Shown: positions 27,701-43,983, counted from the stretch's first letter. The stretch: DNA of 43,983 nt from Candidatus Moranbacteria bacterium GW2011_GWE1_49_15 (GCA_001003855.1 LCPX01000011.1:3681-47663); one strand, 5' to 3'. Program-made: numbers and translations. Notes: generated by a model not told the origin, from the letters alone.

Positions 27701-28149
27701 ATGAGCAAATCCCCGCCCGCTTCCCCCAGGTGCAACCATTCCGGCATAAGTTCGTCTATTTTCCAGATATTGTTTTTAAGGGACGTGAAACTGTTGTCGT
27801 CCCAGTTGACATAAAAAGCGATCACCTTGGGACGCACCGTCGCGGCTTGGTTTTTTTCAGCCTCAAGCCTGATCTCTTCCGCGGATTTCAAAACCGTTCC
27901 GTCAGGAAGTTGCCGGATGGCAGCCGCAGGAAAACCTTCGGCTTTGACGGCGTTGGAAGCCGCCCGATATTGAAGCTGGGGGTCCTTCAATTCAAGCTTC
28001 GGAAGGAGCGGCGATTTGACGACGCTGACTATCATGACGAAAAATATGACGAAAAGAAACGCCCCCGCCGAAACCAGCGTCCTGCGGCTATAGCGGGACC
28101 TTCTGTTTTTTTTGTCATAAAATATCTGGTTGATGTTCAGCGCGGCCAT
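24724..28149 (-). CDS. Tri-domain polysaccharide synthase: GH18-like, CE4 (NodB) deacetylase and processive GT2
   Basis: The GH18-like motif is GINIDFEG. The CE4 motifs are VALTFDDGPD and HTYTHPD. The GT2 motifs are VSVIVPAFNEE, VVDDGSTDST, TLDADT and QRFRW, plus C-terminal TM helices. I set the start at 28149 (MAALNINQIFYDKK...), because the longer track ORF (to 28566) runs through a terminator and into the upstream gene. Confidence 0.88.
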   Translation of the reverse strand: MAALNINQIFYDKKNRRSRYSRRTLVSAGAFLFVIFFVMIVSVVKSPLLPKLELKDPQLQYRAASNAVKAEGFPAAAIRQLPDGTVLKSAEEIRLEAEKNQAATVRPKVIAFYVNWDDNSFTSLKNNIWKIDELMPEWLHLGEAGGDLLIDNQRRQDETLEFIRQNRGDLRVVPLINNFNEITQRWDTDRLVGMLSEESARKKAVEGLHGFVKSNKFAGINIDFEGVPDANQDELFLFMQELYAKFHPEGLVVTQDIPLDDDSFDIGKLSTVTDFLVLMAYDEHYAGGTPGPVSSRSWYSTALARVFSQVPPNKFIVALGGYGYDWTEGEAISNTLSFQDAIRIARESEAQIGLESQSLNPTFDYYDEKNKLHKVWYLDATTVYNEMVIGRQFGNPHGFALWRIGSEDPSVWNVFADREKLDLSTVRKLDVMRYGFDLVYEGEGEILKAETSPHDGLRKITYNAQSGLITKESVLTYPSSYVITRWGGEDGKKVALTFDDGPDRAYTPKILDILKRYDVPATFFVVGVNANINTDILKRIYREGNEIGVHTYTHPDVSAITQRQFKLELDASQRLIESVLGRRSLLFRPPYAEDVEPATPDQVSPLISANSLGYYTIGMHIDPKDWSRPGWENIVGKTVEDIRAGKGNIVLLHDSGGDRSQTVEALPYIIEKLKEEGYQLVTVSDLMGIGRDGVMPMMSFKERLLGKINNAAFLMISYFSGFMRTMFMVGIFLGSLRFFYLSILAVAQRIRSKNAPYKKNSGSYAPSVSVIVPAFNEERVIVKTVEAILDSTYSDFNVIVVDDGSTDSTFDRVSAKFGNNPKVDICFKGNGGKSSALNFGIARTEAEIVVTLDADTLFRPDTMEKLVRAFVDMRVGAVAGNSKVGNRINILTKWQALEYITSQNIEKRAFEVMNCITVVPGAVGAWRREAVLEAGGFSNDTLAEDADLTFSILRSGKLVVFEDEAIGLTEAPDNTRDFIKQRFRWMYGTLQTAWKHRDTMFKAKYKGLGNFAVPNVFVFQVFFPLISPFMDLTIILSFFWVGWQKYSHPLSFSSSASFGQILVYYLLFLAMDFLTGMIPFFLEHRERWTLLFWLPLQRFYYRQLMYYVAIKAFFTAVMGKIVGWNKFERKATVESAVLRPE

Positions 28150-28235
28150 ATATGTCGTATATAAAAATGATCGATCGAAAGGGCTTTCGTGCATCCAATG
28201 CTTAATACAAAACATTTTTCGAATTTGTTCGACAA

Positions 28236-28274
28236 CGAAAAACGCGCCTCCGCCGGTTGGCGGACGAGGCGCGC
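28236..28274 (-). terminator. Rho-independent terminator of 28293..29156
   Basis: gcgcgcctccgcc / ggtt / ggcggacgaggcgcgc, with tttttcg on the minus strand. Confidence 0.75.
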
Positions 28275-28292
28275 TTTGAATCCTGGTTTTTC

Positions 28293-29156
28293 CTATCTCC
28301 AATATATCTGGCTCCTGGTGACTATCTTTTTCCAAGGTCCGTCGGGAATATCTTTTTCCGAAACGAATCTCCAGTCGACCTTGTCTATGTCGGAAAGCCC
28401 GAGATAATCCTTGACCGCCGGGGACACATCCAGCCCGGCACTCTTGTTTGTTTTGCTCTTGGGGGCGTCTTTGCCGAAAACATAATTCTTGTCGTCCTCC
28501 TTGAAAGGTCCGACGTCCTGCCATTGGGCATAGGAGGTTTTCCCCCCTTTGATGATTTCTATCCATTGGTTTTTCAAAACGGACTCGTCATCCTTCCATT
28601 TCTTTCCCTTGGCCCAAGTCGCCAATTCGAAAACATCCTTCTTCCTTTTGCCGTCCTCGTCGAAATCGTTGTATGGAAGGGCGAAATAGAAAGGGTTCTC
28701 CTTGGGCGTGAATTTCGCCGGAAAATATCCTTTTCTCTTTTCGGGATCATCCACGCCGCCGAAATGCTTCACCCAATCCTCATCCCAAGCGCTTGGCAGA
28801 TTGGAAATGTTTTTGTTGTCCTTCCCTGCCTCCTCACCCGCCCAGAAAACGGTGGCTGTTATGTTTTTGTGGAGCGGATAGCTGCTTTTCGGGTTTATTT
28901 CAACAAGAGCGACTTCCGGCGGATTTTGCTCCTTCGAAGTTTCTTGCGAAACGTTTTCCTCGGACCCGACGGTTTCCAGGGCTATTTCCGCGATTTTTTC
29001 CAGACCATCCGTCGGTTCCTTTTTGGCTACCGCTTCGCTTATCGCAGGATCAGCCACCGCATTATCATTTTTGACTTTGTCGATATAACCCTTGGCCAAG
29101 CCTACGAAAACGACGACTGAAACCAGGGGCAAAAGATATATATAACCTTTTCTCAT
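28293..29156 (-). CDS. Secreted conserved hypothetical protein, paralog A (possible DPBB/RlpA-like fold)
   Basis: 287 aa with an N-terminal signal/TM segment. It is roughly 55-60% identical by eye over about 185 aa to 39907..40671 (ATVFWxGEE, SAWDxDWV, FYFALPYNDF, AGLDVSPAV, DGPWKKI). Confidence 0.8.
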   Translation of the reverse strand: MRKGYIYLLPLVSVVVFVGLAKGYIDKVKNDNAVADPAISEAVAKKEPTDGLEKIAEIALETVGSEENVSQETSKEQNPPEVALVEINPKSSYPLHKNITATVFWAGEEAGKDNKNISNLPSAWDEDWVKHFGGVDDPEKRKGYFPAKFTPKENPFYFALPYNDFDEDGKRKKDVFELATWAKGKKWKDDESVLKNQWIEIIKGGKTSYAQWQDVGPFKEDDKNYVFGKDAPKSKTNKSAGLDVSPAVKDYLGLSDIDKVDWRFVSEKDIPDGPWKKIVTRSQIYWR

Positions 29157-31037: not shown

Positions 31038-31424
31038 ATGGGTAAACGAAAATTCAAAGTCAAAAGATCCTTGGCAGGACTGGGCCTGTTCGCGGCGGAA
31101 AACGTCTCCGAGGGGGATTTCGTCATCGAATATACCGGCGAGAAGATCACCCACGCCCAAGCGAACGAACGGAGAGGAAAATACCTCTTCACCCTGAATT
31201 CGCGCTATGTGATAGACGGCCGGGGCAGGAAAAACCTGGCAAGGTACATCAACCATTCCTGCGAACCGAACTGCGAAGTCATCATCGAAGGAAGCGAGAT
31301 TAACGTCTATGCCGTTCGAAGCGTCAAACCAGGCGAGGAACTGACTTATGACTACGGCCAGGAATACTTCAAAGAATATATCGAGCCTCGCGGCTGCAGA
31401 TGCGCGCATTGCGCGAAAAAATAG
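31038..31424 (+). CDS. SET-domain protein (putative lysine methyltransferase)
   Basis: 128 aa with YINHSCEPNC, ELTYDYG and a post-SET-like CRCAHC. Confidence 0.88.
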   Translation: MGKRKFKVKRSLAGLGLFAAENVSEGDFVIEYTGEKITHAQANERRGKYLFTLNSRYVIDGRGRKNLARYINHSCEPNCEVIIEGSEINVYAVRSVKPGEELTYDYGQEYFKEYIEPRGCRCAHCAKK

Positions 31425-31431
31425 AGAACGA

Positions 31432-31458
31432 AAAAACTCCCCGTTGCGGGGAGTTTTT
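31432..31458. terminator. Bidirectional terminator between SET (+) and cupin (-)
   Basis: aaaactcccc / gttgc / ggggagtttt. Confidence 0.8.
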
Positions 31459-31470
31459 GATGCTTCAAAA

Positions 31471-31869
31471 TTATTCCGTCGTCACTCCGTCGAAATCGGC
31501 CTCGTTCTCCTCAGCTTCTTTTTTCGTCGCGCGCACTATTCCGTCTTTATGGTGGGCCGGCGAATAGATCGTATACATCTTAAGAGGCTCGCTGTCGGAA
31601 ACGTTGATGATGTTATGCTCAGCTCCGGCCGGAACCACCACCGCCACACCGTCGGAAAGTTCATATTCGTTTCCGTCAATCACGCATTTCCCTTGCCCGC
31701 TCTCGAAGCGGAAAAACTGGTCGTTCTCAGGATGGACTTCCATGCCGATGTCTTCCCCCGGAGCGAGACTCATCAGAACCAGCTGACTGTTTTTGCCGGT
31801 ATAAAGGACCTTTCGGAAATTGCCGTTTTCCAACGTGTCCTTTTCAATGTTTGAGCGGAATCCTTTCAT
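31471..31869 (-). CDS. Cupin-domain protein
   Basis: 132 aa with cupin motifs GMEVHPENDQFF and VVVPAGAEHNIIN. Confidence 0.85.
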   Translation of the reverse strand: MKGFRSNIEKDTLENGNFRKVLYTGKNSQLVLMSLAPGEDIGMEVHPENDQFFRFESGQGKCVIDGNEYELSDGVAVVVPAGAEHNIINVSDSEPLKMYTIYSPAHHKDGIVRATKKEAEENEADFDGVTTE

Positions 31870-31914
31870 GTTTTTTATTAAAAATAATTATTAACGCGCA
31901 CGGAAACTATTACT

Positions 31915-31923
31915 ATTATACCA
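31915..31923 (-). promoter_or_regulatory. Extended -10 element (TGGTATAAT)
   Basis: The plus strand reads attatacca, about 45 nt upstream of the ATG at 31869. Confidence 0.4.
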
Positions 31924-31929
31924 CGATGA

Positions 31930-32655
31930 TTATTCCCTTTCCTGTCCGCAAAAATACAGACAAGGATCGATCCAGCCGGAAAGCTGGGCTTCGTTTTGCG
32001 CGTATCCCAAAATATTGATATCGCTTCCCTTGCGGATGCCCAAGTGCAAATGCTTCCTTTCCCCGTCCGTTTCCACACTGTAACCGTTGCCCAAAACCCC
32101 GATTTCCTCGCCTACGCCGATTTCATCGCCGATATTTTTGGAAATGCTCGACAATTTCAAATGCCCATAAACCACGGTAACGGCCTGGTTTCCTATCTCG
32201 CACTCCTGCACAGCCAGTCCGCCGTATCCGCTGGCGGTCCTTTTCGAAAGGAGTTTTCCGGAACAGATCGCCTTCACCGGGACTTTTACTTCCGCCTCCA
32301 GCTCCTCGGGGAAAACCTCCAGGTCTATCGCCGTGTGGTATCCGGAAAACCTCTCGGGGCTGACCGGGGAATTTTGCGGGGTGACGAATTTGCCGAACGG
32401 CTTTTTGGAAACCCTTTCCGCCACCCTATCTAAAGGAGGACGCAATTCGTCTTCGAAGTTTTCCTCTGGAACAAACGCCGCCATGCCGTCGCTCTCCAGA
32501 TAAGGTTGTCGGATTTCTTCCGTTTCCGCGCCGTTTTTCCAAGCACCTCCATCTTCCTTTTTCCAGAAGCCAACGTCAGGATAATAAAAAGAGAGGGCGA
32601 AAAAAACAGCCAAAAGCAATGAGATCGCCAATGATATTTTGAAAAATTTTTCCAT
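31930..32655 (-). CDS. M23 (LytM) family metallopeptidase
   Basis: 241 aa with an N-terminal TM helix, HTAIDL, and GHL...HLHLGI. Confidence 0.88.
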   Translation of the reverse strand: MEKFFKISLAISLLLAVFFALSFYYPDVGFWKKEDGGAWKNGAETEEIRQPYLESDGMAAFVPEENFEDELRPPLDRVAERVSKKPFGKFVTPQNSPVSPERFSGYHTAIDLEVFPEELEAEVKVPVKAICSGKLLSKRTASGYGGLAVQECEIGNQAVTVVYGHLKLSSISKNIGDEIGVGEEIGVLGNGYSVETDGERKHLHLGIRKGSDINILGYAQNEAQLSGWIDPCLYFCGQERE

Positions 32656-32658
32656 ACC

Positions 32659-33219
32659 TTATTTATAAAGCTTTTCGAATTTTTTCTTAAACTTGGAAAG
32701 TTTCGGCGCCACGACCAGCTGGCAATACGCTTTATCAGGGTTTTTCTCGAAATATCTCTGATGATATTCCTCCGCCGGATAAAATTTATCCAAGGGGACG
32801 AGCTCCGTCACGATCGGGTTTTCATAAACCTTCTGGTCAGTGAATTCGTTCCTGACCAATTCCGCCGTGTTCCTTTGTTGCTCGTCCGCATAAAGTATTA
32901 TGGATCGATATTGCGTCCCCACGTCGCTTCCTTGGCGATTAAGCGTGGTCGGATCGTGGACGGAAAAGAAAACGTGCAGGATATCCTCATAGGAAATCTC
33001 CTGCGGATCGAATCCGATTTTGATGACTTCGGCGTGGCCGGTCTCCCCGGCGGAAACTTCTTCATAGGTCGGGTTTTCTCCGCCAGTCGGCGGATGCCCG
33101 CCGGCGTAACCCGAAACCACGGATTCCACCCCCCTGACATGCAAATACACCGCTTCCAAGCACCAGAAGCATCCTCCTCCGAGAACCGCGGTTTCCAATT
33201 TTTTATTTTCCTTTTTCAT
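32659..33219 (-). CDS. msrA: Peptide-methionine (S)-S-oxide reductase MsrA
   Basis: It carries the GGGCFWCLEAVY catalytic motif and overlaps msrB by 17 nt. Confidence 0.95.
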   Translation of the reverse strand: MKKENKKLETAVLGGGCFWCLEAVYLHVRGVESVVSGYAGGHPPTGGENPTYEEVSAGETGHAEVIKIGFDPQEISYEDILHVFFSVHDPTTLNRQGSDVGTQYRSIILYADEQQRNTAELVRNEFTDQKVYENPIVTELVPLDKFYPAEEYHQRYFEKNPDKAYCQLVVAPKLSKFKKKFEKLYK

Positions 33220-33607
33220 TTGGATTGAATTTTAAAGAGACTGAATTTATACAATACCTCTTGTTGGTAGGAGGAGGTCCGTCGTCGAAGACGTGTCCCA
33301 AATGCGATTCGCAACGCGCGCAGACGACTTCCGTGCGGAACACCCCGAAAGAATAATCCGGACGCTCTTCGACATGTTCGGGATCGATCGGGGCGAAATA
33401 ACTGGGCCAACCCGTGCCGGATTCGAATTTCTCCCCGCTTTCAAAAAGCGTCAAATCGCACGCCGCGCAACGGTAGACGCCTTCGCCATGACCCTTCCAA
33501 GCGCACGAATGCGCCGGCTCGGTACCTTTTTCCCTCATCACCTCATATTGTTCGGCAGTTAGAATCCTTTTCCATTCCTGTTCGCTTTTTTTTATTTTCT
33601 CAATCAT
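33203..33607 (-). CDS. msrB: Peptide-methionine (R)-S-oxide reductase MsrB
   Basis: It has two CxxC pairs (CAAC, CARC), GHVFDDGP and the RYCINS catalytic Cys. Confidence 0.95.
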   Translation of the reverse strand: MIEKIKKSEQEWKRILTAEQYEVMREKGTEPAHSCAWKGHGEGVYRCAACDLTLFESGEKFESGTGWPSYFAPIDPEHVEERPDYSFGVFRTEVVCARCESHLGHVFDDGPPPTNKRYCINSVSLKFNPNEKGK

Positions 33608-33805
33608 AAATTTAAAATCGTTTAAAAATATAAGACCGTCTTCCTTCCTTTTTATAATACATGCCCTGCGGTCCGTTCTTACAAAAAACCTTGCAAATTC
33701 CGGGAAATATTAGAAAAAGACGGCTGTATTATTACATGTTAAGAAACTTTGCGGGCTGTCTGCGGAAAATAAAAAATCCGCAGGAAACCGGTTAACAACA
33801 AACAT

Positions 33806-34783
33806 ATGTATAAGATAATGATCATAGGGAGCGGATTCGTCGGGCAAGCCACGGGAAAATCATTCGCCAAACTAGGCCACGGAGTCACATTCTGCGACAC
33901 CGACTCCGAAAAACTGAACGATTTGAAAAAGGAAGGTTTTGAAATATCCTCCCCGGAAAACATCGGGCGCGCGCAAGCCGACATTTTTTTCCTGACCGTA
34001 TCGACACCCACGGTGAACAAAAAAATAAAAATGGATTTCATTTTGGCGGCCGTGAAAAACCTCGCCCAGAAGGCGCTCAGGGTCGCCAAGAACCGTCCTT
34101 TGGTGGTGGTGAAAAGTACGGTTCCCCCGGGAACCACTGAAAACGTCATAGCCCCCCTGCTGGAGAAATATTCAGGAAAAAAATCCGGCAAGGATTTCTT
34201 CGCGGCCATGAACCCCGAATATCTCCGCGAAAGGGTGGCCTTGGAAGATTTCGAAAATCCGAGACTGGTGCTCATAGGCGCCAACGAGGAACGAGCCAGG
34301 AAAATACTAAGCGACCTTTATGCCCCATACGAAGACAAATGCCCGATTGCATTTTTGTCCCCGACCGGAGCGGAAATGCAAAAATACACGCATAACCTCT
34401 GGAATGCGGCCAAAATATCCTATTTCAACGAGATGCGCGCGGTCGCCAAGAAAATGGAACTGGATGCCGACAAAATATTCGAACTGACCATGAAGAGTGC
34501 GGAGGCTTCCTGGAATTCTGCTTATGGAACCAAGGATTTCGGACCTTTCGGCGGCAGTTGCCTCCCCAAGGACACTTCGGCCTTCCTGAAATGGTCGAAA
34601 GAGCAGTTGGACATGGACTTGCCTCTTCTCAGATCGGTTATTTCGGTCAATGACGCGTTGGTTGAAAAGATAACTACGGAAAAGGAACGCGAGAAAATCG
34701 TCGAGATCAAAACACTTTCTCCCATATTCTACCTGGAACCAAAAAAGATCGGAGTGGAAAGGAATGGTTTCGAAAGGGAATGA
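33806..34783 (+). CDS. Nucleotide-sugar 6-dehydrogenase (UDP-glucose/GDP-mannose dehydrogenase family), short form
   Basis: It has IIGSGFVGQA (Rossmann) and the GGSCLPKD catalytic Cys. At only 325 aa, the usual C-terminal nucleotide-sugar-binding domain appears to be absent. Confidence 0.85.
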   Translation: MYKIMIIGSGFVGQATGKSFAKLGHGVTFCDTDSEKLNDLKKEGFEISSPENIGRAQADIFFLTVSTPTVNKKIKMDFILAAVKNLAQKALRVAKNRPLVVVKSTVPPGTTENVIAPLLEKYSGKKSGKDFFAAMNPEYLRERVALEDFENPRLVLIGANEERARKILSDLYAPYEDKCPIAFLSPTGAEMQKYTHNLWNAAKISYFNEMRAVAKKMELDADKIFELTMKSAEASWNSAYGTKDFGPFGGSCLPKDTSAFLKWSKEQLDMDLPLLRSVISVNDALVEKITTEKEREKIVEIKTLSPIFYLEPKKIGVERNGFERE

Positions 34784-34856
34784 CGGACGGAGCGATACGT
34801 CCCGCATATCCTGCAAGCAGGGATGGGAATTTTTCCTAAATTAAAAAACAAAAAAT

Positions 34857-35006
34857 ATGCTACTCGACATATTCGACCAAATACGTGAATACGCTTTCCT
34901 CTATGCCCCTCTGGGAATCATAGGCGTTTGGCGTTGGAGCGTCTGGCTCATTCACTTCCGACGAAGGAAGCGCTTACACGTATTCCGTGATAACCCCGGT
35001 GTATAA
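34857..35006 (+). other. N-terminal TM segment of the downstream synthase, in a different frame
   Basis: The ATG at 34857 encodes MLLDIFDQIREYAFLYAPLGIIGVWRWSVWLI... (49 codons). The synthase frame (+1) is open from 34924 and reads ...AYTYSVITPVYNE. Confidence 0.55.
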
Positions 35007-37629
35007 TGAAAACCCGGAAGTGTTCAGGGTGGCCCTGGATTCCTGGAAAAGCAATGGGCCTGACGAAATTATCGCCGTGATGGACGCGAGCGACAAGGCA
35101 TGTATAGAAGTTTTCCAGGAATTCTCGAGAGGTTTTTCCGGAGCGCGTCTCATAGTTACGGACATACCCGGCAAAAGACCCGCGCTCGTCCAAGGCATAA
35201 TGGAGGCTACCAGCGATGTGGTGGCGCTGGTCGACAGCGATACCGTTTGGGACAAAGATGTTTCCAAAAACGCGCTCGCTCCTTTCGCTAACGGAAGGAT
35301 AGGCGGAGTAGGAACCAGGCAGGCCGTCCTTGAACCCAAAACGTTGGCCGAACGCCTTTTCGCTATCAGGCTGAATCTGCGTTATCTGCATGAATTCCCC
35401 TTTCTGATGACGACCGGAAACGTCACCACTTGCCTTTCCGGAAGGACCGCGTTTTACAGAAGAAGGGCTGTCCTTCCCCTGCTTGAAGACCTGCTCACCG
35501 AGAAATTCTGGGGCAAGCCCTGCATCAGCGGAGACGACAAGCGCCTCACTTCCCTACTCCAGGCGGCCGGCTGGCATACGCAGTTCCAACAAAGCGCCGT
35601 CGTCTGGACTCCGGGAATGCCCAAGCTTGGAAAATTCTTCCTACAGAACCTGCGTTGGGCCAGGAACAGTTGGCGGACTGACCTGCGGGTAATTTTCAGT
35701 TTTTGGCCATGGAGAAGGGAGCCCGTTTTCGCCTATCATCTTATTGACCGGACAGTGCAACCTTTCACCTTGCTGCTCGGTCCTATCTTCTTGGTGATCT
35801 CGCTCACTCTCGGCCATTGGGGAGTCGCGGCGGTCATCTTCGCCTGGTGGATGATAAGCAGAACCATCAAACTGTACCCGCACCTCAAATCCAATCCTCG
35901 TGATCTCACGATAGTGCCTTTTTTCACCTTCGCGCAATACTACCTGGCCATTTTGAAAATATACGCGCTTTTCACGATGAATTTCCAAGGCTGGATAACC
36001 CGCTGGGATTCGGACCGCCTCAAAAAATGGACCTACTTGCAGCTTCTGCCTTCGCGCCTGGCGACCTTTTCGCTCATAGGGTTCATGGCCTTCACCGTGG
36101 CCCAGCGCCAATATACCGTCGCCGACGAGCAGGCCATCCGGATCGAGGCGAACACCCCGGCCTATACGGAAGATTTTTCCGATTTCAATTTGGCCGAGCA
36201 AAGCGATGATTTTTGGGTAAAAAGGGAGGCGGCCACGACAGCCGCCTACATAACAAGAACTACCGACACGCCGTTTCTGGTCCAAAAGAGATTCAACCTC
36301 TCGACCCAGGCTGCCGCCCGGTCAATTCCGCAATATCCGTCCAACCTGCTCCTGGGAGCCGGAAGGAAGATATCCATTCCGGTGGAAGAATTGAAAAACG
36401 CCCTTTCCGTCGCACCGGTCCAACTGGTCGGTAAGCCCTTCGTCTCATATAATTCCGCCACCAATACGATCACGCTCAAAGGAAGGGGCTCCGTCATGAC
36501 GATCCCATTCATCCATAGGATCCTCAGCGGGGCCGGCTTCACCAATCCCCTGCAAGAAACTTCCCCAGGAGAATGGATGCTGCGCAGCAACCTCTACGCG
36601 GGCGACGGCGTCACTCTCATCATCGACGGACAAGAAGTCCGCTCCCTCAGGATGAAAAGCGACGAAGACGGCTTCGTTTTCCTGCAGACCTACAATGCCA
36701 GTCTGCTGATCAAAAACACCAAGATAACCTCCTGGAACGAGAAGCTCGGCGCTCCTGACCTGGATTATAAAGACGGGCGGGCATATGTGTTGGCGAAAAG
36801 GAGCGGACGCATGGACGTCCTAAACTCTGACATAGGATATCTGGGCTACGCGCGCTTCACCAAGATCAACGAACGCGTCGTCAACGGCGGAGGAATATAC
36901 GGCCTTTCCTGGAAGATAAACAACAACACTTTCGAAAGCGACCTACTCACCGGCTCGGCCATCGGCAACAAAATCCATGACAACTATTTCGGAATGTATA
37001 CCTACGGCGCCACGGGCATGGAAATCCGCAACAACGAGGTCTTCGACAACGTCCAGTACGGCATCGACCCGCACGACGATTCTAACAACCTGCTCATCGA
37101 GAACAATTTCGTGCATGACAACGGCAACCACGGTATCATCGTTTCCAAAAGGGTCGTCTACAGCACAATCCGCAACAACGTCTCCACCAACAACGCCCTG
37201 CACGGCCTGATGCTCGACCGCCAATCCAACTACAACCTCGTCGAAAACAACGTGGTCTCAGGCAACAACAACGGCATTGCCATTTATGATTCTCACTCCA
37301 ACCTCATCAGGGGTAACGATTTCATCCAGAACCGCTTCGGCATAAGGGCCAACATGAATTCCTCCAAAAACATGTTGCAGAACAATTCCATCCGCAACAA
37401 TGAGAGGGGCGTCTTCATCTATGGAGGAGCCGAGGGTAATATCCTGGCCAGCAACGTCATAAAGGAAAACAGCCAGGGCATATATTTCAAGCAGGCTGCC
37501 GGAAACGTGGTCCTGGACACCTTGAGCTGGAGGGATAACGGAAAAAATATCGATTTCGACGACTCTTCCACCAAGGCCAACTTCGTTAGACAACCGGAAA
37601 ACCCTTGGTGGGTCATCGAACGGAAATAA
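34987..37629 (+). CDS. HasA/Alg8-like processive GT2 synthase fused to an AlgG-like C5-epimerase beta-helix
   Basis: The GT2 motifs are ITPVYNE, VDSDT, GDDKRLT and QNLRW (35644-35658). Several TM helices follow. The C-terminal parallel beta-helix repeats carry YGIDPHDD (DPHD at 37066-37077), HGIIVSK, HGLMLDRQS and FGIRAN. Confidence 0.85.
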   Translation: MITPVYNENPEVFRVALDSWKSNGPDEIIAVMDASDKACIEVFQEFSRGFSGARLIVTDIPGKRPALVQGIMEATSDVVALVDSDTVWDKDVSKNALAPFANGRIGGVGTRQAVLEPKTLAERLFAIRLNLRYLHEFPFLMTTGNVTTCLSGRTAFYRRRAVLPLLEDLLTEKFWGKPCISGDDKRLTSLLQAAGWHTQFQQSAVVWTPGMPKLGKFFLQNLRWARNSWRTDLRVIFSFWPWRREPVFAYHLIDRTVQPFTLLLGPIFLVISLTLGHWGVAAVIFAWWMISRTIKLYPHLKSNPRDLTIVPFFTFAQYYLAILKIYALFTMNFQGWITRWDSDRLKKWTYLQLLPSRLATFSLIGFMAFTVAQRQYTVADEQAIRIEANTPAYTEDFSDFNLAEQSDDFWVKREAATTAAYITRTTDTPFLVQKRFNLSTQAAARSIPQYPSNLLLGAGRKISIPVEELKNALSVAPVQLVGKPFVSYNSATNTITLKGRGSVMTIPFIHRILSGAGFTNPLQETSPGEWMLRSNLYAGDGVTLIIDGQEVRSLRMKSDEDGFVFLQTYNASLLIKNTKITSWNEKLGAPDLDYKDGRAYVLAKRSGRMDVLNSDIGYLGYARFTKINERVVNGGGIYGLSWKINNNTFESDLLTGSAIGNKIHDNYFGMYTYGATGMEIRNNEVFDNVQYGIDPHDDSNNLLIENNFVHDNGNHGIIVSKRVVYSTIRNNVSTNNALHGLMLDRQSNYNLVENNVVSGNNNGIAIYDSHSNLIRGNDFIQNRFGIRANMNSSKNMLQNNSIRNNERGVFIYGGAEGNILASNVIKENSQGIYFKQAAGNVVLDTLSWRDNGKNIDFDDSSTKANFVRQPENPWWVIERK

Positions 37630-37712
37630 AAACGAATCTCATCTCTCCCTTTTCGCTTACGATATTCCCGCCGTTCGCGACTAAGACAAGTTGATCCGCG
37701 AAAACAAACAAA

Positions 37713-38873
37713 ATGAAAAACAAGACCATGATCATCGTTTCAGCGTTGTTCCTTTCCCTGTCCGGGCTTCTTTTGTATGGCTATCTTTCGGACGGAGCGC
37801 CCTTCCCCATCACGGACGACCGGCAAAGCACGTATGAGGGATCTCCGGAAAAAGAAGACGTCGGACCGGGAATAAGGGACGAGTTTTACATAAGTCCCTT
37901 GGGAAGCGATGAAAACGACGGGTTATCCTGGAAAAGTCCCTTTCTGAGTATCCAGAAGGCCATCTATCTGGCCGGCCCGGGCAGCGCGATCCATCTTGCG
38001 GACGGAACCTACATGCAAAATATCGTTTCCAAAAGGGATGGCACGGCGAAAAATCCCATACGGATCACCGGCTCCCCCTCCTCGATTGTGCAAGGCGGGA
38101 AAATTTCCCGCGTCATCGAAATAAACCACAGTTTCATCACATTGGAAAATTTCACCGTGGACGGTCTCGTTGGGAGCCCTGATGAAAAATCCGGTTTCCG
38201 CGACAAATTGATTTACGTCCAAGGAAAAGGAGATGGGAAAGGGGTGACCGGGCTGAAGGTTTTGAAAATGAGCCTCAAAAACGCCGGGGGTGAATGCGTG
38301 CGTCTGAGGTATTTCGCCCAAAAAAACGAAATAGCGGACAACACCATAACAGGCTGCGGAGCCTATGACTTTCTTCTCGACGGTAAAGGCAAAAACGGCG
38401 AGGGCATATATATCGGAACCGCTCCGGAGCAGACCGACGACGGCAAGAATCCAACCGACGAACGCGACCACTCGAACGGCAATTGGGTGCATGGCAACAC
38501 CATCGACACGCAAGGAAACGAATGCGTGGACGTCAAAGAAGGTTCTTCGGGAAACCTGGTTGAAAATAACGTTTGCACCGGGCAAAAAGACAGCGAATCC
38601 GGAGGATTGGATTCGAGGGGTAACGGGAATATTTTCCGCAATAACCTAGTATATGGCAACGCCGGGGCCGGCATCAGGCTCGGCGGAGACGAAGATGACG
38701 ACGGGAAGAACAACGACGTCTATCTCAACACGATCCGCGATAACGAGGGGGTCGGCATAAAAGTCCAACGCTATCCCCAAGGAAAAATTTGCGGAAACGT
38801 TTTGAGCGGAAACGACGGAGGCGAAATCACCGAGGAATACGCGGAAGACATAGCCAATGAGGCATGTGATTGA
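37713..38873 (+). CDS. Secreted right-handed beta-helix protein (DUF1565 / pectate-lyase-superfamily-like)
   Basis: 386 aa with a signal/TM segment MIIVSALFLSLSGLLLYG. YISPLGSDENDGLSWKSPFLSIQKAI is typical of DUF1565 starts, and NNxxxGN beta-helix repeats follow. Confidence 0.8.
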   Translation: MKNKTMIIVSALFLSLSGLLLYGYLSDGAPFPITDDRQSTYEGSPEKEDVGPGIRDEFYISPLGSDENDGLSWKSPFLSIQKAIYLAGPGSAIHLADGTYMQNIVSKRDGTAKNPIRITGSPSSIVQGGKISRVIEINHSFITLENFTVDGLVGSPDEKSGFRDKLIYVQGKGDGKGVTGLKVLKMSLKNAGGECVRLRYFAQKNEIADNTITGCGAYDFLLDGKGKNGEGIYIGTAPEQTDDGKNPTDERDHSNGNWVHGNTIDTQGNECVDVKEGSSGNLVENNVCTGQKDSESGGLDSRGNGNIFRNNLVYGNAGAGIRLGGDEDDDGKNNDVYLNTIRDNEGVGIKVQRYPQGKICGNVLSGNDGGEITEEYAEDIANEACD

Positions 38874-38883
38874 TTTTCGAATA

Positions 38884-38916
38884 AAAAACAAACCCCGTCC
38901 TTTCGGGGTTTTTTTG
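38884..38916. terminator. Bidirectional terminator
   Basis: aaccccg / tccttt / cggggtt with flanking A- and T-runs. It sits between convergent genes. Confidence 0.8.
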
Positions 38917-38937
38917 GTTTTTAGAATTTATCGAACC

Positions 38938-39381
38938 TTATACTATTTTTTCTTCTATTCCAGAAAGTTTCTCTATGACCGTTTTCATTTCCTTTTCCAC
39001 GCTTTTTATCTTCTCGAGTTCCGTCTCGACTTCCTCTTCCGTCTTTTCCGCTATCTTCTTTTCCTTGCGGATGCCGGAAATGATGACTTCGTTCCCGATG
39101 AAACTGGGAACCAATATTCCCGTGATGAGGAGCATCGCTCCCCCGGCGATGACGGAAGAAGCCCCGTCCCACCAAGGAAGACTGTCGACGCCGATCGCGG
39201 AAACATTAGAAGATTTTTTCAATATTTCCGCCACGACGAAATCGTTGAGATGCCAAACCCCCCTCCAAAAAATTATCACCCCGGTCCCGCCGATGAAAGC
39301 GTAGAGGATCGGCTGTCGGCTGAGACGGTGCCTCACTTTATCCTCAAGTTTATCGAAATAATTCACTATCCTTTTAAGCAT
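38938..39381 (-). CDS. Hypothetical membrane protein with a C-terminal coiled coil
   Basis: I chose the ATG at 39381 (MLKRIVNYFDK...), because the longer ORF to 39468 would run through the terminator at 39412-39441. It has two TM helices and a Glu/Lys-rich tail. Confidence 0.65.
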   Translation of the reverse strand: MLKRIVNYFDKLEDKVRHRLSRQPILYAFIGGTGVIIFWRGVWHLNDFVVAEILKKSSNVSAIGVDSLPWWDGASSVIAGGAMLLITGILVPSFIGNEVIISGIRKEKKIAEKTEEEVETELEKIKSVEKEMKTVIEKLSGIEEKIV

Positions 39382-39411
39382 GTTTTTTGTACTTATTTTT
39401 AAAGCCTCTGA

Positions 39412-39441
39412 AAACGAAAAAACGGGTATCACCCGTCTTTT
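39412..39441 (-). terminator. Rho-independent terminator of the cupin gene
   Basis: On the minus strand: gacgggt / gat / acccgt followed by tttttcgtttt. Confidence 0.7.
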
Positions 39442-39531
39442 TGCGGCTTCCGCCAGCTGGCGGATCAAGCCCCATATATTCCATTATAGCATATTTTTAA
39501 TCTTTTGTCCACAAATCCCTCCTCTCGTCGG

Positions 39532-39837
39532 TTATTTTTTCAGCATCACCAAAAGCATCTTGAATCTGTTTTGTGCCATGAGCGAATGCGGCTCGTTGGC
39601 CGGCATGATTATCATCTCCCCCGCCTCCAAAACGTGCGTCTTTCCGGAGATGGTTATTTCGCCCTCCCCGTCCAAAACATTGACTAAGACGTCGAACGGA
39701 GCGGTGTGTTCGCTGAGCCCTTGCCCCTTATCGAAAGCGAACAGCGTGACGGAGCCAGCTTCGGTTTTCAAAACCTCTTTACTCACCACCGATCCGTCTT
39801 GGTATGAAATATCGTCCCTCAACATCGCTTTGTCCAT
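39532..39837 (-). CDS. Cupin-domain protein
   Basis: 101 aa with GLSEHTAPFDVLVNVLDGEGEI and IIMPANEPHSL. Confidence 0.85.
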   Translation of the reverse strand: MDKAMLRDDISYQDGSVVSKEVLKTEAGSVTLFAFDKGQGLSEHTAPFDVLVNVLDGEGEITISGKTHVLEAGEMIIMPANEPHSLMAQNRFKMLLVMLKK

Positions 39838-39906
39838 AAAATTTTCCTATTTAAAAAATTAATCATGACCCATATCATTGTACTACAATCCTCCGTCGCT
39901 TTTAAA

Positions 39907-40671
39907 TTACCCTCTTGGACCGGTGATTATCTTCTTCCACGGTCCGTCCGGCACGTCTTTTTCTTCCACGAACTGCCAATCGACGATATCGACCCCTTCC
40001 AAGCCCAGATAATCCCTGACCGCCGGGGAAACATCCAGCCCGGCTTTTTTACCTTCGGTGTTTCTAGGGGATGCCGACCCGAAAACATACCCGGCATCGT
40101 CCTCCTCGAACGGACCGACGTCTTCCCATTGCGCGAAAGCGGTTTTTTCGTTTTTGACTATGCGTATCCAACGATTCTTAAGCACCGATTCGTTTTCCGG
40201 GACCCTCGCTCCCTCGGCCCATTCGGCGAGCTCAAATACTTCCACCTTCCGCCTCCCTTCGTCGTCAAAATCGTTATACGGCAGGGCGAAATAAAAAGAA
40301 TTCTCATCCGGAGTGAAAGCGTCCGGCAAAAGCCCCTCCCTATCCTCGGGATCGTCCGTTCCCCCGAAACTGCCGACCCAATCGCTATCCCAGGCACTGG
40401 CCGAATTATGTATGAAACCGTTATTCTCGTCAGCCTCTTCCCCGACCCAGAATACGGTGGCGGTTATTTTCGCATGTATGGGATATGCGTAGCTTTCCCA
40501 AAACCCGGACCCGGGAACCCTGACCGGGTTTTTTTCGGCATCATAAAAAAAGCCGTTGATCTCTTCCCTGAGAGCCAGGTCTGCCGCGTCCTCCTTCTTG
40601 CTTCGAAACGATAAGAAAGCGATCGCGGCGGCGGCCACAATAACGATGATGATTATCGTTGCTTTTTTCAT
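39907..40671 (-). CDS. Secreted conserved hypothetical protein, paralog B of 28293..29156
   Basis: 254 aa with an N-terminal hydrophobic anchor. It shares the same conserved blocks as paralog A. Confidence 0.8.
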   Translation of the reverse strand: MKKATIIIIVIVAAAAIAFLSFRSKKEDAADLALREEINGFFYDAEKNPVRVPGSGFWESYAYPIHAKITATVFWVGEEADENNGFIHNSASAWDSDWVGSFGGTDDPEDREGLLPDAFTPDENSFYFALPYNDFDDEGRRKVEVFELAEWAEGARVPENESVLKNRWIRIVKNEKTAFAQWEDVGPFEEDDAGYVFGSASPRNTEGKKAGLDVSPAVRDYLGLEGVDIVDWQFVEEKDVPDGPWKKIITGPRG

Positions 40672-40735
40672 ACCGTATTTCCTTAATTCATAATCCGCCC
40701 TGTTAATACCTGTCAGAACAAGGATTTATCGCAAA

Positions 40736-40762
40736 CAAAAAAACCCTCCGAAGAGGGTCTTT
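40736..40762 (-). terminator. Rho-independent terminator of the csp gene
   Basis: On the minus strand: gaccctc / ttcg / gagggt followed by ttttttt. Confidence 0.8.
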
Positions 40763-40777
40763 TGTAACTCCCAAAAA

Positions 40778-40981
40778 TTAAGAAATTTTTGAAACGTTGA
40801 TTGCGTTAGGTCCTTTTGGGCTTTCGCTTACTTCGAACTCAACTTTGTCTCCTTCGCGAAGGTCGTTGTATTCAGTTCCCTGAAGTTCCTTTGCGTGGAA
40901 GAAAAGGTCTTTGTCAGATCCTTCCTGGGCGATGAAGCCGAATCCGCGATCTGTAAGCCTTTTGATTGTTCCTGTAGCCAT
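40778..40981 (-). CDS. Cold-shock domain protein (CspA family)
   Basis: 67 aa with RGFGFI (RNP-1-like) and LFFHAKEL. Confidence 0.93.
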   Translation of the reverse strand: MATGTIKRLTDRGFGFIAQEGSDKDLFFHAKELQGTEYNDLREGDKVEFEVSESPKGPNAINVSKIS

Positions 40982-41081
40982 TTCGTTTGAATTGCTATTG
41001 TCTGATTAAGTGCATGTGTGGGTTTGTGCAAAGAGTTTTAGTTCGACTAGGCTGCTTTTGCGTGCCGACTGATGCACATCT

Positions 41082-41110
41082 ATATTAGCATTTATCGGGT
41101 TTTTTGTCAA
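41082..41110 (-). promoter_or_regulatory. Near-consensus promoter of csp, giving a leader of about 95 nt
   Basis: On the minus strand: TTGACA (41105-41110), a 17-nt spacer, then TGcTAATAT (-10 at 41082-41087). Confidence 0.55.
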
Positions 41111-41117
41111 TAGCGTC

Positions 41118-42569
41118 CTATCTTTCCAAATCCAGCACCTCATCTATGCGGACTTGGGAGACGAATTCGGCGACGTGGCTGACCAGCACCATCGCACCCT
41201 TATATTCGCTCAGCGCCTCGGCGATTATCGGAAGATGGCGGAAGTTGATGTGGTTAGTCGGCTCGTCCAGAATCAAAAGTCCCGGTTCCTGCAGCACTAA
41301 GCGCGCGAATGCGACCAATCCCTTCTGTCCTTCGGAAAGCGTTCCGATTTTCGCATAAACGGTTTCCTTGGTGAGCAAAAACCCCGCGGCGACCGCGCGG
41401 AGCCTTTCTTCATCTTTTTCCCGCATCACCTGAGAAAGGGATTCGAATACCGTGTCCTCGAAATTCAAAGTGGAAAAATCCTGGCGGTAATATCCGACTC
41501 GCACACCTTCCGCGATCTTCGCCCCTTCTGCACTTCCCGAAGCCAATGATTCCAAAAGGGTGCTTTTTCCGATGCCGTTCGGACCGGAAAGCAACAGGTG
41601 TTGATTTTTTCGCAGAGATACGTTCGCTTTCTTTTCCATCGGATAATGGTTTTGCATCACACACACCGAAGTTATTCCCAGAATTTCTCCGGAAAGCTCC
41701 TCCTGATGCGGGATAGTGAAGTTCCTGATCGCCTTGTCTTCTTTGCGCACGTCAACTTTCGCTTCCTCCATCGCCTGCGCCTTCTCGCGCATTTTTTTGG
41801 CTACCAATCTCATCCCTCCTCCTTTGTTGGCAAAAAAGTTCGCCTTTTCCTTGTTGGCACGGATCTCTTTTTCATATTGCGCGTTCTTCATTTCCTCCTT
41901 TTCTATCTGCGCCGCGATTTCCGCCACCACCACGTAATAATCCCCGATATACTGCTCTGTTTTCTTTGTAAAGACGTCCAGATACAAAACTCCGTCCGTG
42001 AAAGCGTTGAGGAAATCCGCGTCATGGGAAATCACGATGCAAGTTTTGTCATAGCCCATCAGAAACGCAGTCAGATGTTCGATGCCAGCCTTGTCCAGAT
42101 TGTTCGTCGGCTCGTCCAAAATCAGAAGGTCTGGATCCTGGATCAGCGCCGAAGCCAAAAGGAGCCTTGCCTGTTGTCCGCCGGAGAAAGATTTCATTTT
42201 TCTTTCAGGCGTCGCGATCAGATTCACCACTTCCAAAACGTTCTTGATGCGCTTGTCGATGTCATATATCTTTTCGGAAAAACATTTCTGAAAAAATTCG
42301 CGCACCGTAAGCTCCATGTCCTCGCGCGGGATCACCTGCTTGGCGTAGGCCACGGAAAGTTTCGGATCCACGTATATGGAGCCTTCCTCTGGCTTGAGCT
42401 CCCCGGTAATGAGCTTGAAAATCGTGCTTTTGCCCGCCCCGTTCTGCCCCATCAAAGTGATCTTGGTCCCTTGGCGCAGAGAAAAAGAAGCCTCGTCCAA
42501 AATGGGCTTTTCCCTGCCATATTCGAAGGTTACTTCGCTGAATCTTACCGCTACGTCGTTTTTTGCCAT
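41118..42569 (-). CDS. ABC-F family ATPase (two ABC domains, no TM domain)
   Basis: 483 aa with two Walker A motifs (GQNGAGKST, GPNGIGKST) and two signature motifs (FSGGQQ, LSEGQK). A charged inter-domain linker joins the halves. Confidence 0.9.
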   Translation of the reverse strand: MAKNDVAVRFSEVTFEYGREKPILDEASFSLRQGTKITLMGQNGAGKSTIFKLITGELKPEEGSIYVDPKLSVAYAKQVIPREDMELTVREFFQKCFSEKIYDIDKRIKNVLEVVNLIATPERKMKSFSGGQQARLLLASALIQDPDLLILDEPTNNLDKAGIEHLTAFLMGYDKTCIVISHDADFLNAFTDGVLYLDVFTKKTEQYIGDYYVVVAEIAAQIEKEEMKNAQYEKEIRANKEKANFFANKGGGMRLVAKKMREKAQAMEEAKVDVRKEDKAIRNFTIPHQEELSGEILGITSVCVMQNHYPMEKKANVSLRKNQHLLLSGPNGIGKSTLLESLASGSAEGAKIAEGVRVGYYRQDFSTLNFEDTVFESLSQVMREKDEERLRAVAAGFLLTKETVYAKIGTLSEGQKGLVAFARLVLQEPGLLILDEPTNHINFRHLPIIAEALSEYKGAMVLVSHVAEFVSQVRIDEVLDLER

Positions 42570-42588
42570 ATTTTAGAACTTTATTCCC

Positions 42589-42705
42589 TAGGACTTACGC
42601 GTTTGATCGCGGCAAGAATGAGTGTTTGCGCTTCCGGCTCCACCAGTTGGCGGACGGCGGAGCGCATAGAGGCTCGTTTGAGCAAGAGCGAACGTGTAAG
42701 TCCTA
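42589..42705. repeat. MITE-like palindromic element, copy B (117 nt)
   Basis: taggacttacgcgtttgatc...gagcgaacgtgtaagtccta is TA-bracketed. The arms match the reverse complement of 3122-3214. The apex carries an extra GC-rich hairpin. It lies 19 nt upstream of the start codon at 42569. Confidence 0.65.
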
Positions 42706-42780
42706 TTTTTATATTTTTTCACACTGAGCTCCCATCATAACCCATATCGGAGGATTTGAAAAGACCCGGACGCTCCCGAC

Positions 42781-42801
42781 AAAAAATCGCCCGGGGGCGA
42801 T
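42781..42801 (-). terminator. Rho-independent terminator of 42849..43325
   Basis: atcgccc / gg / gggcgat, with tttttt on the minus strand. Confidence 0.7.
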
Positions 42802-42848
42802 GAATTGCTTGAATTTTATTCAGCACCGGACCGTTCCTACGCTCTCTC

Positions 42849-43325
42849 TCAGAAGACCGACCTGGAAGCCATGAAACCCAAGGACACCAAGGTGGTGACA
42901 AGGCCGCCCGCGGCCAGTATTCCCAAGAAAATGACCCCGATCGCCCTCCAAAAAGGTACTCCCAGTATGTAAGCCGCCACGGCTCCGCTCCAGGCTCCGG
43001 TCATTGGCAACGGCACGGCTACGAAAACGAACAAGGCCACCTCCATCCATTTCTTCTCATGGAAATGATCCATATGCTTCCTTTGTGAACGCTCCAGAAC
43101 CCAAACCATGAAACGGTTGAAGTGGTATGATTTGTGCATCAGATATTCGGAAAATCTCTGCAAGAAAAAAAGGAAAGGTACGATCAAAAAGATGTTGCCC
43201 AAAACCGCGATAAAATAGGCCTTGAGCGGGGAAAAATGGAAAACTCCCATCGCCAAAGGTATCGCCCCCCTAAGCTCCAATATGGGCGCCGCCGCCGTTA
43301 AAAAAGTTATTATTTCCTGGTTCAT
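42849..43325 (-). CDS. Small membrane protein, COG2426 / putative small multidrug export family
   Basis: 158 aa with AAAPILELRGAIPLA and the family-typical TM layout. Confidence 0.75.
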   Translation of the reverse strand: MNQEIITFLTAAAPILELRGAIPLAMGVFHFSPLKAYFIAVLGNIFLIVPFLFFLQRFSEYLMHKSYHFNRFMVWVLERSQRKHMDHFHEKKWMEVALFVFVAVPLPMTGAWSGAVAAYILGVPFWRAIGVIFLGILAAGGLVTTLVSLGFMASRSVF

Positions 43326-43404
43326 TTGTTGTCTTGTTTTATGTTTTTATTTCAATGACTTCGATAAGTCTACGCTAAAAACGATTTTTTATCAACCCCT
43401 GGCG

Positions 43405-43983
43405 CTACTCCAAAAGCTTGGAATATTTATTTTTAGCTTCATTGAAAGAGGACATTTTGCTTTCATCCAGGGGCGCCCCCTTCGGAAGATCCAGCTTCAG
43501 CGGATTGATCGGGGCTCCGTCCAATTTCATACCGAAATCGAGATGCGGTCCGGTCGACCACCCCGTCGATCCGACATAACCGACGACCTCGCCCTGCGAA
43601 ACCCTCTTGCCAGCCACCATCCCCTTGGCGAAAGCGCTGAGGTGCCCGTAGTGCGTCGTGTAACCGTTGTCATGGCTGATGCGCACTATGTTCCCCCAAC
43701 CCGTCTCAAATCTCGCGCTCGTCACCGTTCCGCGAGCTGTCGAGACGACCGGGGTTCCCGTCGGGGCGGCGTAATCGATCTGGTAATGGGCGGTTACGGT
43801 TTTCGTGATCGGATGCATGCGGGCTCCGGTGTATCCCGAAGTGATCCTGCTGAAACTCAAGGGGGCCTTCAAAAACTGCCTTTCCAAAACGCGACCCTCC
43901 TCGTCATAATATCCGCCGCTTCCATCGTTATCGAAATAATAGGCGTAATGCGATTTTCCGTCGTTTATGAATCTGGCCGCCAA
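43405..43983 (-). CDS. M23 family metallopeptidase, 5' end outside the window
   Basis: It has HYGHLS and GSTGWSTGPHLDF motifs. The ORF stays open to the window edge. Confidence 0.88.
   Translation of the reverse strand: MAARFINDGKSHYAYYFDNDGSGGYYDEEGRVLERQFLKAPLSFSRITSGYTGARMHPITKTVTAHYQIDYAAPTGTPVVSTARGTVTSARFETGWGNIVRISHDNGYTTHYGHLSAFAKGMVAGKRVSQGEVVGYVGSTGWSTGPHLDFGMKLDGAPINPLKLDLPKGAPLDESKMSSFNEAKNKYSKLLE

Follow-up and report, generated by a model that had tools for sequence, protein, structure and literature searches.

A widespread fusion of a GT2 synthase and an AlgG-type beta-helix: a candidate minimal system for alginate-like, C5-epimerised polyuronates in Patescibacteria

Bacterial alginate synthesis is thought to need an envelope-spanning machine encoded by roughly twelve genes. 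The alginate operon (algD-alg8-alg44-algK-algE-algG-algX-algL-algI-algJ-algF-algA) combines a donor dehydrogenase, a family 2 glycosyltransferase (GT2) as polymerase, C5 epimerisation at the level of the polymer, and a lyase encoded alongside. A 2015 review counted only AlgG, AlgE1-7 and one heparosan epimerase as polymer-level epimerases for bacterial polysaccharides (PMC4432689). We found the same logic in three genes, as against twelve, within a 43,983-nt stretch of Candidatus Moranbacteria bacterium GW2011_GWE1_49_15 (GCA_001003855.1 LCPX01000011.1:3681-47663; hereafter the window, meaning that whole stretch). The three genes encode a short AlgD-like dehydrogenase, a fusion of a GT2 synthase with an AlgG-type beta-helix, and a second beta-helix protein homologous to the lyase PsAly (Table 1). 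Unlike the alginate operon, the module includes no genes for a c-di-GMP co-polymerase, outer-membrane export or acetylation, its dehydrogenase is without the third domain, and no Alg8-type synthase was detected. Alg44, AlgK, AlgX and porin domains were absent from the Pfam hits of the scanned open reading frames (ORFs) of the window and of the genes on a closely related contig (L001, described below), in agreement with an earlier note made from the window sequence alone, whose quoted motifs were all recovered where it had placed them. Clustering the ORFs from 81 fusion loci, which underlies all neighbour counts given here, likewise revealed no Alg44 (PilZ), AlgK/AlgE export or AlgX/AlgI/AlgJ/AlgF acetylation genes among the annotated recurrent neighbour clusters.

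We estimate at roughly 0.6 the probability that this module is a minimal synthase-dependent system, adapted to a single-membrane cell, that makes an alginate-like polyuronate exopolysaccharide with C5-epimerised residues. The joining of GT2 and beta-helix parts in one gene, which the earlier note had read from this one locus, recurs as a single ORF in 80 other genomes. The architecture is widespread rather than unusual: the fusion was confirmed in at least 558 species genomes in a scan of one genome per species. The best 120 protein matches, of about 875-1350 aa, all carry GT2 and beta-helix Pfam domains; their sequences are in public databases already, where they go by generic names ("hyaluronan synthase", "glycosyltransferase", "NosD domain-containing protein", "LysM protein"). 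The best 80 of the at least 558 relatives come mostly from Patescibacteria (Moran-, Roizman-, Davies-, Levy-, Woese- and Andersenbacteria and WWE3) and Chloroflexota (Caldilineaceae and Ardenticatenaceae). Both phyla are regarded as single-membrane lineages, and the lack of Alg44, AlgK, AlgE and AlgX fits cells without an outer membrane. We found no description of a synthase–epimerase fusion, or of alginate genes in Patescibacteria or sludge metagenome-assembled genomes (MAGs), in the full-text literature searched, which is weak evidence because most subscription journals lie outside its coverage; the earlier note knew of no characterised fusion either.

Table 1. Features of the three-gene module and its surroundings, with positions in the window.
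Feature	Position	Strand	Basis
NAD-dependent sugar 6-dehydrogenase ORF, 325 aa	33806..34783	+	Pfam, NCBIfam and PDB matches
Fusion gene 5' end, orphaned	34857..35006	+	Translation: ATG, N-terminal helix, out-of-frame stop
32-nt deletion junction	34954..34955		blastn and direct comparison with contig L001
Synthase–epimerase fusion (putative), main ORF, 880 aa from GTG	34987..37629	+	Intact protein has 54 further N-terminal residues
Cytosolic GT-A (GT2) catalytic domain	34990..35700	+	Pfam, NodC model, hyaluronan synthase alignment
Membrane region of fusion protein	35725..36105	+	Hydropathy and model helices
Degenerate LysM-like beta-alpha-alpha-beta module, predicted extracellular	36241..36393	+	Model and Pfam scores of homologues
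AlgG-type right-handed beta-helix, putative polyuronate C5-epimerase	36433..37563	+	NCBIfam, PDB, Foldseek
PsAly-type beta-helix lyase homologue, predicted membrane-anchored, 386 aa	37713..38873	+	PDB profile, Foldseek, aligned residues
Terminator-like hairpin, bidirectional	38890..38911		Consensus scan; directly 3' of third gene

The fusion gene of the window itself is broken. The earlier note described a 2.7-kb gene starting some 70 nt downstream of the dehydrogenase; the long ORF is indeed there, but it is not one intact frame from the ATG at 34857, which lies at that distance and is out of frame with the GTG at 34987. The ATG frame encodes MLLDIF...WRWSVWLIH, beyond which reading continues in the wrong frame until a stop at 35004-35006. 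This orphaned 5' end covers the conserved N-terminal membrane helix (MLLDIFDQIREYAFLYAPLGIIGVWRWSVWLIH...), in which P18, G20, G23, W25, R26, W27 and W30 are invariant or nearly so across the family, and its first 32 residues are identical to those of the best database match, an intact 934-aa protein (P0001) that differs from the 880-aa ORF at one residue (N to D). P0001 is encoded on contig L001, which comes from a groundwater metagenome and shares 99.5-99.9% identity with window positions 31222-43983. L001 has 32 extra bases, GAAATTCTTTTCCCTCTATTATCGTCCTTATC, between 34954 and 34955; with these bases present, the gene encodes a single 934-aa protein. The 32-nt deletion therefore shifts the frame and severs the conserved helix from the rest of the protein. 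No microhomology was obvious at the junction. By exact look-up, the intact allele (KKU54903.1, HBP01375.1; the source of KKU54903.1 is Candidatus Moranbacteria bacterium GW2011_GWE2_47_10) is on five contigs and the near-identical L001 form on one further contig, and a single contig, of 47,663 bp, has the 880-aa form. Because of this distribution, and because the lost segment falls in the most conserved N-terminal helix, the window's ORF is probably either a recently disrupted and inactive allele or an assembly error.

For the window copy alone, we give an even chance to the fusion gene being a pseudogene or an assembly artefact that yields no working synthase, whatever the intact family does. 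Besides the severed helix and the rarity of the truncated allele, this is favoured by the position of the nearest Shine-Dalgarno-like sequence (GAAGGAAG), about 16 nt upstream of the GTG, and by a second indel, a 15-nt in-frame deletion relative to L001 at the dehydrogenase 3' end near 34763. There AAATCAATTTCAAAC is missing, which leaves a dehydrogenase of 325 aa as against 330 aa in L001 and affects its non-conserved tail, so that two indels lie within 200 nt of otherwise near-identical DNA. Against it, the remaining 880 codons are intact with the single substitution noted above, so any inactivation would be very recent, and the protein might function without its first helix. Functional inferences about the fusion protein, and all its residue numbers, refer below to the intact 934-aa form.

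The C-terminal half of the fusion is a right-handed beta-helix whose closest relative, by sequence and by fold, is AlgG; the earlier note had proposed a C5-epimerase from motifs in it. The motifs present include YGIDPHDD (37057-37080, with DPHD at 37066-37077), NHGIIVSKR (37126-37152) and RNNVSTNN (37171-37194), together with LHGLMLDRQS, NGIAIYDS and FGIRAN. The NCBIfam AlgG model NF038177 matched residues 520-810 with E=4e-40 and 138 bits, compared with an equivalog cut-off of 700 bits, which makes the beta-helix a homologue of AlgG and not an orthologue. Solved AlgG gave the top PDB sequence matches (4ozy, E=1e-27), with AlgE4 and AlgE6 at E ~1e-10. An AlphaFold2 model of the intact allele (mean predicted local distance difference test score, pLDDT, 91.5) was aligned by Foldseek with AlgG structures 4ozy, 4nk6 and 4ozz at E=6e-17 to 3e-16 (4nk6 at 6e-17) and with TM-scores of 0.71-0.74 normalised to AlgG, and almost the whole AlgG crystal structure was covered at 21-24% identity. 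NosD-like copper maturation was also considered and rejected: the Pfam NosD and Beta_helix matches are generic, TIGR04247 gave 51 bits where its cut-off is 300, and the match to solved NosD, at E=0.18, was far behind that to AlgG.

The Tyr/DPHD catalytic motif of AlgG is retained. YGIDPHD lies residue for residue on the YGIDPHD of AlgG, and the HGIIVSKR strand on AlgG HGIIISRE, with SKR over SRE. Across 63 family sequences, D748 is invariant and Y745, H750 and D751 are each present in 62. Position 775 is lysine in 50 of the 63 and arginine in 12, with arginine at the next residue in 54; in the sequence alignment it lies over the arginine of the AlgG HGIIISRE strand, which we take to be the carboxylate-neutralising residue. 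The DPHD histidine of AlgG removes H-5, the water that donates the proton is held in place by Tyr314, and neutralisation of the carboxylate falls to an arginine (PMC4444821). The beta-helix thus shares with AlgG of Pseudomonas and Azotobacter (PDB 4NK6, 4OZY) its fold, the Y-G-I-D-P-H-D motif, the HGII-S-(K/R) strand and, by prediction, a place of action outside the cytoplasmic membrane. AlgG, however, is soluble and periplasmic and works within the Alg44/AlgK/AlgX/AlgE complex, whereas the beta-helix here forms the C-terminus of a synthase and is preceded by a LysM-like module. The AlgE1-7 proteins of Azotobacter (PDB 2PYG, 5LW3) share the beta-helix and the YG(F/I)DPH(D/E) motif, but they are calcium-dependent, secreted and free of any synthase, and they match the fusion much more weakly, by fold (E=2e-7) as by sequence. 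Fusion proteins with two tandem beta-helix modules, of about 1200-1375 aa, were observed at loci L045, L071, L074, L075 and L078 and recall the two catalytic modules of AlgE1 (PMC4432689).

The N-terminal half has the features of a polymerising GT2 synthase, which bears out the earlier assignment. The motifs ITPVYNE, DSDT (35233-35244), SGDDKRLT (35527-35550) and QNLRW (35644-35658) are in place, and Pfam identified Glyco_tranf_2_3 at E=3e-27. DSDT, SGDDK and QNLRW are invariant in the 63 sequences, as are the individual residues D137, S138, D139, D238, K239, Q274, R277 and W278. The best named family is NodC (TIGR04242), at 104 bits compared with a 550-bit equivalog cut-off, and the best solved relatives are hyaluronan synthases (HAS), with 8smm at E=2e-13 by sequence and Chlorella virus HAS (7sp7) at E=2e-18 in a Foldseek search with the intact-allele model. 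No similarity to Alg8 appeared among NCBIfam matches to E=10 or the PDB sequence and fold matches listed, the presence of Alg8 in these libraries being unconfirmed. Class I HAS and NodC share with the fusion a GT-A domain with DxDT, GDD and QxxRW, interface helices and a channel-forming membrane domain. The fusion differs from them in its helices, with a single one both at the N-terminus and after the gating loop where they have two in each place, and in an extension of about 500 residues, predicted to be extracellular.

This helix count bears on the side of the membrane on which the epimerase would work. The membrane region comprises two transmembrane helices, an interface helix, a gating-loop motif GWITRW (35989-36006) and the last transmembrane helix (36043-36105). 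Alignment with HAS spans the membrane domain and places W-I-T-R over WGTSGRK of Xenopus HAS1 and WGTRG of Chlorella virus HAS; W390, T392 and R393 of this loop are invariant in the family. The gating loop of HAS is a cytosolic segment between interface helix 3 and transmembrane helix 5 (PMC11750622). Since only one hydrophobic helix (residues 405-425) follows the loop before the LysM-like module and the beta-helix, the C-terminus is predicted to exit the cell. The LysM-like module appears in the model as a strand-helix-helix-strand unit at residues 472-519, between the last membrane helix and the beta-helix, and in fusion homologues the corresponding stretch, positions 472-536, scores as a true LysM domain (PF01476, with E as low as 3e-13). 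LysM modules bind the wall outside the cytoplasm, and the position of this one after the last helix offers independent support for an outside location. The outer-face epimerase of the earlier note is thus supported by the gating-loop alignment, by the single helix after it and by the LysM module that comes next.

The first gene encodes a member of the UDP-glucose/GDP-mannose 6-dehydrogenases, although not a complete one. The earlier note had assigned it to that group from its Rossmann motif IIGSGFVGQA (33821-33850) and its GGSCLPKD segment with the catalytic cysteine (34550-34573), and both are present. Pfam detected the NAD-binding Rossmann domain (PF03721, E=7e-35) and the central domain (PF00984, E=2e-18) and no other, and TIGR03026 scored 213 bits against a 189.8-bit cut-off while covering profile positions 72-303 of 413. 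The C-terminal nucleotide-sugar-binding domain (PF03720) is absent, the protein ending where that domain should begin. C252, K255 and D256 are invariant in the family alignment. AlgD, which binds GDP-mannuronate with its C-terminal domain, is the best PDB match (1MFZ), and its Rossmann domain, central domain and catalytic Cys-Pro-Lys-Asp segment align with the short form; AlgD has 436 aa, whereas the short family stops at about residue 300. Truncation as a local artefact was considered and rejected: a short dehydrogenase, of median length 304 aa, adjoins the fusion gene at 67 of the 81 loci, and the best 120 database matches are all of 284-341 aa and all without PF03720. At three loci (L028, L031 and L048) two fusion genes flank the short dehydrogenase. 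A full-length, 444-aa paralogue from the UDP-glucose dehydrogenase (UGDH) family, about 28% identical to the short form, was observed a few kb from the module at two further loci (L012 9844-11178 and L013 8752-10086), so canonical and short dehydrogenases can coexist. That a dehydrogenase without its substrate-binding domain should be conserved is by itself a puzzle for enzymology.

The match to AlgD bears on the sugar donor. AlgD (1mfz) scored 144 bits with the single sequence and 226 bits with the family profile; the profile's runner-up in the PDB, an archaeal entry deposited as UGDH, scored 194 bits (32 below AlgD), and other bacterial UGDH entries scored about 156 bits (about 70 below). 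Because the family profile scores AlgD highest, GDP-mannuronate (GDP-ManA) is modestly favoured over UDP-glucuronate (UDP-GlcA) as the predicted donor. A simple hasA-hasB reading, in which a UDP-glucose dehydrogenase would supply UDP-GlcA, is weakened by this proximity to AlgD and by the lack of a nucleotide-sugar domain. The short form also makes the supply of either UDP-GlcA or GDP-ManA less certain than the earlier note assumed. We regard it as unlikely that the same machine builds another polymer from UDP-sugars, namely a glucuronate (GlcA) chain, whether glucuronan or hyaluronan-like with N-acetylglucosamine (GlcNAc), in which the beta-helix would convert GlcA to L-iduronate. HAS and NodC, which the GT2 half resembles most, down to its membrane helices and gating loop, use UDP-sugars, the best named NCBIfam equivalog of the dehydrogenase is the UDP-glucose dehydrogenase AglM (172 bits), and LysM modules bind GlcNAc-containing glycans; the lead of AlgD over every UGDH entry, however, points the other way, as do the epimerase, a polymannuronate-preferring type of lyase and the PL7 genes, all of which are nearest to characterised alginate enzymes.

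Genes for predicted lyases accompany the fusion and give it an alginate context. The third gene was expected to encode a secreted beta-helix protein, and we found a beta-helix with an N-terminal membrane helix; of the two roles envisaged for it, candidate lyase or second epimerase, the evidence points to the first. Its best sequence match was PsAly of Paenibacillus sp. FPU-7 (PDB 6KFN), at E=4.6e-5 with the single sequence and 1.2e-10 with the family profile. The AlphaFold2 model (pLDDT 91.6) shows an N-terminal helix at residues 2-26 followed by a disordered linker, which suggests a membrane-anchored extracellular enzyme, and Foldseek again ranked 6kfn best (E=2.7e-11, TM-score 0.76), well ahead of PL6 lyases, Pel9A and AlgE4. 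Y233, K275, E230, E270 and D273 are invariant in 50 sequences and align with PsAly Tyr184, Lys221, Glu181, Glu216 and Asp219. PsAly is an endolytic, polymannuronate-preferring lyase in which the first two of these residues are catalytic and the other three are cation ligands (PMC6796002). The two proteins differ in that identity is only about 20% and the third gene adds the membrane anchor and linker. A second epimerase was rejected, as AlgG matched at E ~1 compared with 1e-10 for PsAly and the lyase catalytic residues are conserved. Members of the third-gene family were near the fusion at 27 of the 81 loci, and a PL7 Alginate_lyase2 protein (E=5e-42) at 20; on L001 a PL7 gene (14510-15286) lies about 6.8 kb downstream of the module, about 1.7 kb past the 3' end of the window. 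Such lyase genes at many loci lend support to the uronate-containing glycan that the earlier note had in mind, even as the supply of its donor has become less secure. Other recurrent neighbours were a BNR beta-propeller protein (22 loci), an fn3 membrane protein (18) and a sortase (9). One fusion protein (P0053) has an extra C-terminal BNR domain, as in the BNR gene that adjoins the fusion elsewhere.

We think it improbable that the C-terminal beta-helix is instead a lyase or chain-processing domain, tethered to the synthase, that sets the length of nascent polyuronate by cutting or releasing it. Epimerases and lyases share carboxylate neutralisation and H-5 abstraction, AlgE7 performs both reactions from one site (PMC4444821), and the beta-helix is well under the AlgG equivalog cut-off. 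Its best matches, however, are epimerases (AlgG, then AlgE4 and AlgE6) and not PL1, PL6 or PL9 lyases, and the water-positioning tyrosine of AlgG is kept in all but one of the 63 sequences. The dedicated PsAly-type and PL7 genes at many loci also make a lyase role for the fused domain unnecessary. Still less credible, to the point of being nearly negligible, is a neutral, chitin-like or other GlcNAc polymer with the beta-helix as a binding or other carbohydrate-active module and the dehydrogenase unrelated to it: NodC as the top-scoring named GT2 family, the LysM module and the missing nucleotide-sugar domain favour it, but the dehydrogenase adjoins the fusion at most loci across distant lineages, there is hardly any variation in the DPHD, tyrosine and basic residues of a mechanism specific to uronates, and uronate lyase homologues recur.

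Returning to a system for an epimerised polyuronate, the analyses establish what the domains are, how far their motifs are conserved and that the genes are linked, and they supply the argument on topology; the donor, the polymer, an epimerase rather than lyase activity and the part played by the lyase are inferred, as follows. The short AlgD-like dehydrogenase would supply an activated uronate in the cytosol. The GT2 half, by its likeness to solved HAS, would polymerise the chain there and thread it through its own membrane channel. Outside the cell and on the same polypeptide, beyond the last membrane helix, the LysM-like module may hold the beta-helix at the wall, where it would bind the emerging chain. 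Judging from the conserved AlgG residues, the DPHD histidine would then take H-5 from some residues, and reprotonation from the other face would produce C5 epimers (mannuronate to guluronate). AlgL in Pseudomonas trims or releases alginate, and the membrane-anchored PsAly-type lyase may do likewise here. The fusion of epimerase and synthase would replace the periplasmic Alg44/AlgK/AlgX/AlgE scaffold, impossible in a cell without an outer membrane, and would keep the epimerase where the chain exits.

Several points weigh against this reading. AlgD and UGDH bind the nucleotide sugar through a domain that the dehydrogenase does not have, which leaves any synthesis of GDP-ManA or UDP-GlcA by it unexplained. 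The enzymes that the synthase half resembles work with UDP-GlcNAc or UDP-GlcA, and no likeness to Alg8 appeared among the matches listed. The beta-helix falls far short of the AlgG equivalog cut-off, and its proton-abstraction chemistry, being common to epimerases and lyases, is one from which sequence alone cannot separate the two. The membrane side of the beta-helix is predicted from alignment logic. Finally, some MAG labels ("uncultured Gammaproteobacteria"), themselves unconfirmed, conflict with a strictly single-membrane distribution.

The locus could also represent a second, independent route to alginate-like polymers, in which a non-Alg8, HAS/NodC-type synthase polymerises, exports and epimerises in one polypeptide. 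Its supply would come from a two-domain dehydrogenase that manages without the canonical nucleotide-sugar-binding domain and that might dock on the synthase or use another substrate. We offer this only tentatively, with the odds somewhat against it. The fusion family is a widespread, uncharacterised and readily testable candidate for synthase-dependent, epimerised polyuronate synthesis. If this holds, the module would reveal how bacteria that have no outer membrane manage polymerisation, export and epimerisation, would provide a very small (two- or three-gene) genetic system for tailored polyuronates, and would make many Patescibacteria and Chloroflexota unrecognised producers of an alginate-like matrix; that uncultured members of these phyla produce such matrix in groundwater and sludge is speculation. 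The GT2 half might also serve as a non-Alg8 candidate template for the mannuronan synthase of brown algae, which a 2024 paper describes as unidentified, with no Alg8 homologue there (PMC11468063).

The three genes of the module are co-directional on the + strand, and the gene that follows the third ORF and the hairpin is convergent. The hairpin probably marks the end of the three-gene unit; the total of terminator-like sites in the region was not above shuffled expectation, and the hairpin is suggestive by its position alone. One promoter-like site overlaps the dehydrogenase start codon, in a scan whose site count was not above shuffled expectation and which is uninformative. Rfam matched no RNA element in the whole window, and a permissive Rfam scan of 33500-35100 matched no riboswitch or leader. 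Just 3' of the module are two ORFs on the - strand (38938-39468 and 39907-40671) that do not recur at other loci; the second, of 254 aa, has an N-terminal hydrophobic segment and no Pfam match, and the L001 homologues of both have no Pfam match on record.

Further features of the window lie upstream of the module. In a 1280-aa ORF (24724-28566, - strand), domains of the GH18 chitinase-like (residues 298-543), CE4 polysaccharide deacetylase (629-732) and chitin-synthase-like GT2 (905-1190) types are joined. With it, the genome has two synthases joined to domains that modify polymers, which suggests that such fusions are a general habit of the lineage. A giant 3012-aa ORF (7531-16569, - strand) probably encodes a surface protein; its Pfam matches are confined to fn3-type domains close to the C-terminus. 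A 128-aa ORF (31038-31424, + strand) contains a SET-domain-like sequence (...RYINHSCEPNCE...ELTYDY...), as read in its translation.

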